From Escherichia coli (GTDB lineage: Bacteria > Pseudomonadota > Gammaproteobacteria > Enterobacterales > Enterobacteriaceae): 64,000 bases of DNA. The position numbers and the translations under genes were made by a program. The notes under the pieces are model-generated. The model was given only the letters and a program-made list of their open reading frames with translations. It searched no databases and was not told where the DNA came from. Numbering within the stretch: position 1 is the first letter of the stretch; each line of letters opens with the position of its first letter. The DNA is taken from the NCBI RefSeq assembly GCF_003790525.1, contig NZ_CP033635.1. One strand, 5' to 3'. Positions 3,495 through 4,322 of the stretch are shown here, one piece after another.

Positions 3495-4322
3495 TTATTA
3501 ATAGTTGTAATAAATCATTGAGTAACAATTGATAGGCCAAAACATATAGGATAATTCTTGTGTGATCTGTATTTTGTGTAGCCTGGAAATTAGTAAAATT
3601 CCTGGAGATAATCAGAAAGGGAATTTCAAATAAGCATAATAATTTCCAGTGAAACTATTCGTCGATTTTAAGAAATGTCTGCTCAGGTATATCTACTGAG
3701 GGATGGTGTTGGTTGTAACACTGGTTAAAATAAATACACAAAATAATCAAGATGTATATTTTAATCGACGAAAATAATTACTTTCGGGATTATTGATGCA
3801 ACTTAAATAACACCATTTAAATGTGATATAAATCACAAATATGGCTGTAAAGAGGGGGCTGTAGATATAAATAAGAAGTACACGAGTGAATTTTAAATAG
3901 GGAAATAGTTTCTCGGTGAACAATTTATTGGTAATCAATCGCGTGCGTTCTGGTTTGAAACAGATTGCAGGTATTGTTACGCATAAAATCCATAGGGGAT
4001 ATTATAATCAAGTAGTTAACAGTAATAACAAAAAATAATTTCCTGAGAAATTAACTCTGCATTCTAAAACGGCCAGTTTTCTGAAATTACCAGAAGACCG
4101 AATACATTCATGCCTGAAGAATGGATTAGAAGAAACGAGACGGAAATAGATCTATTTATCCCTGCGGAAATAATTTCTGCTGAAATTGTTTGCGGCTATT
4201 AAAAAGGTCAAACCGTCTGAGTAAATTTTATCCAGTTACAAACAAGTATTACCTCCAGTGTATTGGTAGCTGTTAAGCCAGGGGCGGTAGCATACCTGAA
4301 GAGAATAGGGTCACATCATCAA
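3495..4322 (+). promoter_or_regulatory. AT-rich kps region 3 promoter and long 5' leader upstream of kpsM
   Basis: ~0.8 kb AT-rich non-coding DNA upstream of kpsM; group 2 capsule loci are known to have a distant promoter and long leader; exact -35/-10 not assigned. Confidence 0.4.
4283..4294 (+). promoter_or_regulatory. ops (operon polarity suppressor, RfaH-dependent) element GGCGGTAG in the kpsM leader
   Basis: Exact GGCGGTAG core at 4283-4290, about 33 nt upstream of the kpsM ATG at 4323, the position expected for group 2 capsule region 3. Confidence 0.75.

Follow-up and report, generated by a model that had tools for sequence, protein, structure and literature searches.

The ops element of the kpsM leader in an Escherichia coli group 2 capsule locus with a relocated kpsT

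A group 2 capsule (kps) locus is contained in a stretch of 64,000 nucleotides (nt) of Escherichia coli contig NZ_CP033635.1 (assembly GCF_003790525.1), hereafter referred to as the window. Here, positions 4256-4294 very probably represent the JUMPstart sequence of the capsule region-3 leader and positions 4283-4294 its ops element, at which RfaH is expected to load and from which it would continue through kpsM and approximately 11 kb of DNA beyond. The ops/JUMPstart element as such is already known, and the same sequence has been validated by chromatin immunoprecipitation sequencing (ChIP-seq) in strain CFT073.

The initial annotation of this DNA had placed an exact ops core approximately 33 nt upstream of kpsM, and a pattern search recovers it there: the 8-mer GGCGGTAG occupies positions 4283-4290 on the plus strand, the same strand as kpsM, with 32 nt separating it from the kpsM ATG at 4323 and its last G located at -33. 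This 8-mer is part of the 3' end of a complete JUMPstart sequence of 39 nt (4256-4294, plus strand), which is matched by the Rfam covariance model RF01707 with 53.6 bits (gathering score 35; E = 1.9e-9) over model positions 1-38 of 38. Its last 12 nt constitute the ops element GGCGGTAGCATA (4283-4294, plus strand), present on the non-template strand. Between this 12-mer and the kpsM ATG lie 28 nt, corresponding to 40 nt from ops start to ATG, which agrees with PMC8960920, where the kps ops is placed 28 bp before kpsM. The kpsM ops of CFT073, taken like all ops values for this strain from Data set S2 of Hustmyer et al. 2022 (PMC9765446), likewise reads GGCGGTAGCATA. With the covariance model match, the conserved leader and this identical 12-mer, the assignment of the element as the ops of the kpsM leader, also put forward in the initial annotation, is upheld.

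Which bases of an ops element matter is known in detail: substitution of C3, G4, G5, T6, A7 or G8 abolishes or strongly reduces RfaH recruitment, while T11 is the pause base (PMC5995543). All of these required bases are present in GGCGGTAGCATA. The 8-mer taken alone is not above chance, as it occurs twice in the window compared to 1.37 expected copies, and at least two copies are found in 39 of 100 shuffles. The second copy is part of a plus-strand site at 18470-18481 reading GGCGGTAGCGAG, which lies antisense within kpsS, does not carry T11 and is conserved as coding sequence in the CFT073 locus and in that of a sequence type 69 (ST69) strain. Should transcription read through from region 2, this copy would be on the non-template strand. 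Lacking T11 and lying in coding DNA, this site was rejected as a second ops and is most likely a chance or coding-constrained match.

The JUMPstart sequence is also present in two O-antigen leaders as well as in every kps locus examined. Compared to strain Esc7, it displays 97.4% identity versus 75.8% for the remaining leader, and in an alignment with Z1002 detectable homology starts only about 29 nt upstream of it. Judged from these alignments, the JUMPstart is a conserved island in a diverged leader. Additionally, 46 complete genomes, among them LF82 and NRG857c, share the 91 nt around JUMPstart and ops without a difference.

The ops site, 28 nt before kpsM, is embedded in a presumably transcribed but untranslated leader that is homologous to the mapped leaders of K5 and CFT073. 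In K5, for which the sequence of strain Nissle 1917 stands in all alignments, transcription from the region-3 promoter PR3 starts 741 bp upstream of the kpsM ATG (PMC8960920), and this start site maps to approximately position 3583 of the window. The transcription-unit start determined in CFT073 by RNA sequencing (3530138; PMC9765446, Data set S2) maps to approximately 3594. By coordinate transfer, PR3 and its start site are thus placed approximately at 3570-3594 on the plus strand, giving a leader of about 740 nt (3583-4322, plus strand, 34% GC) which is homologous to the K5 PR3 leader and 97.6% identical to that of Nissle 1917. As in canonical group 2 region 3, the conserved PR3 leader and kpsM adjoin the gsp/yghD genes, the order in the window being the 3' part of gspJ, gspK, gspL and yghD (gspM) at 10-3266, followed by a leader stretch of about 1 kb and kpsM. 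The latter (4323-5099, plus strand) encodes an ABC transporter permease of 258 amino acids according to the RefSeq annotation of the identical locus in CUVET17-1418. That kps locus is 100% identical by BLAST over 3267-5200 and has matching open reading frame coordinates elsewhere. The NCBIfam KpsM model matches the protein with E = 1.4e-55 and 189 bits, which is below the model's curated cut-off of 300 bits, and the gene shares 96.7-99.6% nucleotide identity with kpsM of canonical loci. A longer open reading frame with a TTG start at 4263, contained in a program-made list, is considered an artefact, the annotated kpsM ATG being at 4323. No Shine-Dalgarno-like sequence was found 5-13 nt before this ATG, which fits the RfaH-assisted ribosome recruitment discussed in PMC5995543, though this is only suggestive.

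Downstream of kpsM, the locus departs from the canonical arrangement. In canonical loci, kpsT overlaps kpsM (ATGA) and is located 0.8 kb from ops, whereas in the window kpsT neither directly follows nor overlaps kpsM. Instead, the sequence is homologous to K5 and Esc7 only as far as ATGATTA, the first 7 nt of kpsT, and alignment and translation reveal a relic of five codons from the kpsT start of canonical loci, ATGATTACTTATCACTAG (MITYH*; 5096-5113, plus strand), which overlaps the kpsM stop. This relic marks the recombination junction at which homology to standard kpsMT loci ends, and beyond it the locus consists up to 16216 of foreign, serotype-specific DNA of low GC content. The relic is followed by two serotype-specific plus-strand genes between kpsM and kpsT, encoding a galactosyltransferase-related protein (5199-6191) and a CDP-glycerol glycerophosphotransferase family protein (6211-9945), with a GC content of 27-32%. 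Only then, 5,834 nt past the first base of ops, does a divergent, apparently functional kpsT (10117-10797, plus strand) begin, whose ABC ATPase product exhibits 78% amino acid identity to Nissle K5 KpsT (75% at the nucleotide level; 33% versus 39% GC). The relocated kpsT is flanked by AT-rich gaps of unusual length, namely 171 nt (9946-10116) and 219 nt (10798-11016), which could hold internal promoters or regulatory sites. Distal serotype-specific genes on the plus strand (11017-16216) encode an acyltransferase, a GT2 glycosyltransferase, a capsule biosynthesis phosphatase and a hypothetical protein. Altogether, eight plus-strand genes span 4323-16216, and 16216 is the presumed end of the RfaH-dependent unit. 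The insertion sequence (IS) 3 relic and, on the minus strand, the convergent kpsSCUDEF genes come next.

A simple insertion between kpsM and kpsT is ruled out by the ATGATTA junction and the divergence of the local kpsT. Since homology stops within kpsT and the local kpsT is a divergent one, the locus is therefore better described as a replacement mosaic than as an insertion into an existing kpsM-kpsT pair. The initial annotation is thus supported in part: the read-through from kpsM into kpsT and beyond that it proposed fits the co-oriented genes at 5199-16216, while its wording of 'inserted biosynthetic genes' proved inaccurate. The parts of the mosaic also differ in their affinities: the leader shares 97.6% identity with that of Nissle K5 and only 94.7% with that of the ST69 locus, its ops haplotype resembling that of CFT073 and LF82, whereas kpsM (99.6%) and region 2 (99.3%) are ST69-like, which points to a recombination breakpoint near the ops/kpsM start. 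The ST69 strain in question is of serotype O15:H18. Because region 2 is 99.3% identical to its locus, and ST69 belongs to clonal complex 69 (CC69), in which K52 is the commonest K locus (PMC13171606), the present locus is probably of the K52 type. Its rearranged kpsM/kpsT layout has already been catalogued, namely for K7, K51, K52, K104 and others (PMC13171606), and the stretch 3267-5200 finds a match in 1,716 of 5,426 complete E. coli genomes.

The DNA downstream of kpsM has the properties expected of a single transcription unit requiring RfaH. At 30.1% GC, region 5100-16216 carries all its genes on the plus strand, and between 4323 and 16216 the intergenic gaps amount to 99, 19, 171, 219 and 37 nt, in addition to two overlaps. 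Terminator-like sites in the operon DNA number seven on both strands versus 5.8 expected, with only one, weak, on the plus strand at 14692, and intrinsic terminators within the operon were rejected on the basis of this single weak match and the chance-level count. No further plus-strand core match with up to one mismatch was found in 4300-16300, so that reloading of RfaH within the operon is unlikely. The co-oriented AT-rich genes at 5199-16216, including kpsT, would fit one long RfaH-dependent unit.

According to the mechanism proposed here, transcription would start at PR3, about 740 nt upstream of kpsM as judged from the transferred position. After approximately 700 nt of leader, RNA polymerase would reach ops, where the non-template strand is expected to form a small C3:G8 hairpin presenting G4, G5, T6 and A7. 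RfaH would then bind these presented bases and load onto the polymerase, as is established for ops elements generally and has been shown by ChIP for the exact 12-mer in CFT073. The RfaH-modified polymerase should resist pausing, Rho termination and bridged filaments of H-NS/StpA, and might in this way continue through kpsM and about 11 kb of DNA with 30% GC (5100-16216), including the serotype-specific genes and kpsT. Finally, following the general RfaH model, RfaH may also aid ribosome loading on kpsM, which does not carry a Shine-Dalgarno sequence. This antitermination model is the established one for JUMPstart/ops elements, and we infer RfaH dependence for the strain considered here.

Several points weigh against this assignment. 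The consensus TG at ops positions 11-12 is not found, as position 12 is A and not G. The rfaH gene is not located in the window, a literature search on K52 and RfaH yielded nothing relevant, and internal promoters may be present in the AT-rich region 2. Regarding the first point, A12 replaces G12 in all kps ops elements examined, and since the ChIP-positive kps ops of CFT073 (the same 12-mer) as well as the likewise ChIP-positive c1882 ops GGCGGTAGCGTA carry A12, G12 is not an absolute requirement.

The last point leads to the alternative that survives best, although we consider it improbable: a genuine ops element, but with kpsT and the distal genes driven mainly by internal AT-rich promoters, so that RfaH would matter little for those genes. 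The gaps before (171 nt) and after kpsT (219 nt) are large enough for promoters, and many sigma-70-like hexamer pairs occur in 5100-16216. These promoter-like sites are, however, not enriched over shuffled sequences (70 versus 82.1 expected), AT-rich promoters of this kind are typically silenced by H-NS, and the equally AT-rich kps region 2 of CFT073 loses RNA polymerase in an rfaH deletion. Less probable still is the idea that the JUMPstart functions chiefly as an RNA stem-loop or as binding site of another factor, with the ops core being incidental. The Rfam JUMPstart model does include a 5-bp stem (4263-4267 with 4277-4281), whose first pair is retained as U-G instead of U-A by an A-to-G difference at 4281, and the function of the upstream 27 nt of the JUMPstart is not explained by the ops mechanism. 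In contrast, RNA folding of 4240-4330 yields no stability above that of shuffled sequences (z = +1.23; equally good or better folds in 181 of 200 shuffles), the Rfam stem is absent from the minimum-energy fold, and ops has been shown to act as non-template DNA (PMC5995543). An RNA-structure reading of 4240-4330 was dropped on account of this missing stability beyond shuffles, which is consistent with a DNA-level signal. That GGCGGTAG before kpsM might be a functionless chance 8-mer has almost nothing left to commend it, despite its chance-level count in the window and the 34 of 42 ops-like sites in CFT073 that lie in coding regions without RfaH binding (PMC9765446), as it is refuted by the full JUMPstart match (E = 1.9e-9), its position in a presumed untranslated leader and the conservation of position, strand and sequence in every kps locus examined, drawn from over 1,600 E. 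coli genomes with the homologous stretch.

Given RfaH loading at the kpsM ops, the position of kpsT gains relevance. With its start 5,834 nt past ops, kpsT lies at approximately the distance at which CFT073 loses at least two thirds of its polymerase without RfaH, and RfaH dependence of kpsT is therefore expected. In this probably K52-type layout, the KpsT export ATPase, and not only polymer synthesis, could thus come under RfaH control, while elongation control, rather than translational coupling, would determine the KpsM:KpsT ratio, a proposition for and against which we see the case as evenly balanced. Ribosomes might nevertheless stay coupled over the 99-nt gap by way of the relic of kpsT, which overlaps the stop of kpsM. 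RfaH dependence of KpsT is not stated in the papers examined and is only mildly new. If true, capsule export should collapse together with synthesis once RfaH is missing, which is relevant to anti-virulence strategies targeting this factor. K52 is reported to surpass all other E. coli K types in estimated invasive potential (PMC13171598). On a practical level, ops can serve as an annotation anchor, marking where the PR3 transcript becomes RfaH-dependent and thereby predicting that the eight plus-strand genes at 4323-16216 form one unit.

Further features were observed outside this unit. Between region 2 and kpsS lies an IS3-family transposase pseudogene (16435-17544, minus strand), inside which a full-length Rfam match to the Hfq-binding small RNA isrN is located (17137-17279, plus strand, 123.7 bits); possibly, the isrN 'small RNA' family is part of an IS element. 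After kpsF, a genomic island of the SPI-7 (Salmonella pathogenicity island 7) type extends over 27069-64000 and encodes ParA, a dnaB-PI helicase, ParB and topoisomerase III. A STAXI RNA motif (42617-42770, plus strand, 139 bits) is found within it. CUVET17-1418 does not carry the island at kpsF, which there is adjoined by tRNA-Phe and core genes.

Among known systems, the kps ops of CFT073 (K2), located upstream of c3698 (kpsM), is the closest counterpart. In addition to the identical 12-mer, 45 nt upstream and 14 nt downstream are identical, the distance from ops start to ATG is likewise 40 nt, and comparison of the CFT073 sequence reveals the same gspM(yghD)-leader-kpsM context. It differs from the window in its canonical overlapping kpsM-kpsT, in about 116 extra leader nt and in two single-nucleotide differences within the spacer between ops and ATG. 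In wild-type CFT073, this kps ops is RfaH ChIP-seq-positive, and upon rfaH deletion RNA polymerase 5.4 kb downstream (relative to 0.4 kb) in the wzx, kps and rfa operons amounts to between 0.1 or less and 0.34 of the wild-type value (PMC9765446). Where the same 12-mer occurs within the sucA and clbB coding sequences of this strain, it is not bound by RfaH (PMC9765446), which indicates that the untranslated-leader context matters.

The K5 locus (Stevens et al. 1997; Nissle 1917) shares with the window a homologous PR3 leader, the JUMPstart and the spacing, and according to the published model its transcription continues into region 2 in an RfaH-dependent manner (PMC8960920). The comparison with the ops/JUMPstart sequences of other leaders proposed in the initial annotation shows that the K5 ops GGCGGTAGCGTA, which is also found in the ST69 locus and three other kps loci, differs from that of the window only at the variable position 10 (G in K5, A in the window). 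K5 kpsT overlaps kpsM (ATGA), while the window kpsT follows 5 kb further on. For K1, rfaH has been found necessary for capsule by transposon-directed insertion site sequencing and with defined mutants (PMC5654933).

More distant leaders, those of O-antigen (rfb/wzx), rfaQ, hlyC and wza operons, share the 39-nt JUMPstart architecture and the GGCGGTAG core. In CFT073, the ops elements of wzx, wza, rfaQ, tssH and c4518 read GGCGGTAGCGTG, that of hlyC GGCGGTAGCATG and that of c1882 GGCGGTAGCGTA (PMC9765446), while the two O-antigen leaders carry GGCGGTAGCGTG and GGCGGTAGCATT. The window ops has A10 in common with hlyC and A12 with c1882. At positions 11-12, most of the O-antigen, rfaQ, hlyC and wza sites show the consensus TG, which is replaced by TA in kps sites, and the downstream operons differ. 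In terms of overall layout, the window resembles K52 and other rearranged group 2 loci, in which kpsM and kpsT lie apart or have a changed position with respect to the K-specific genes, while its leader and ops haplotype is CFT073/LF82-like and thereby unlike that of the ST69 locus.
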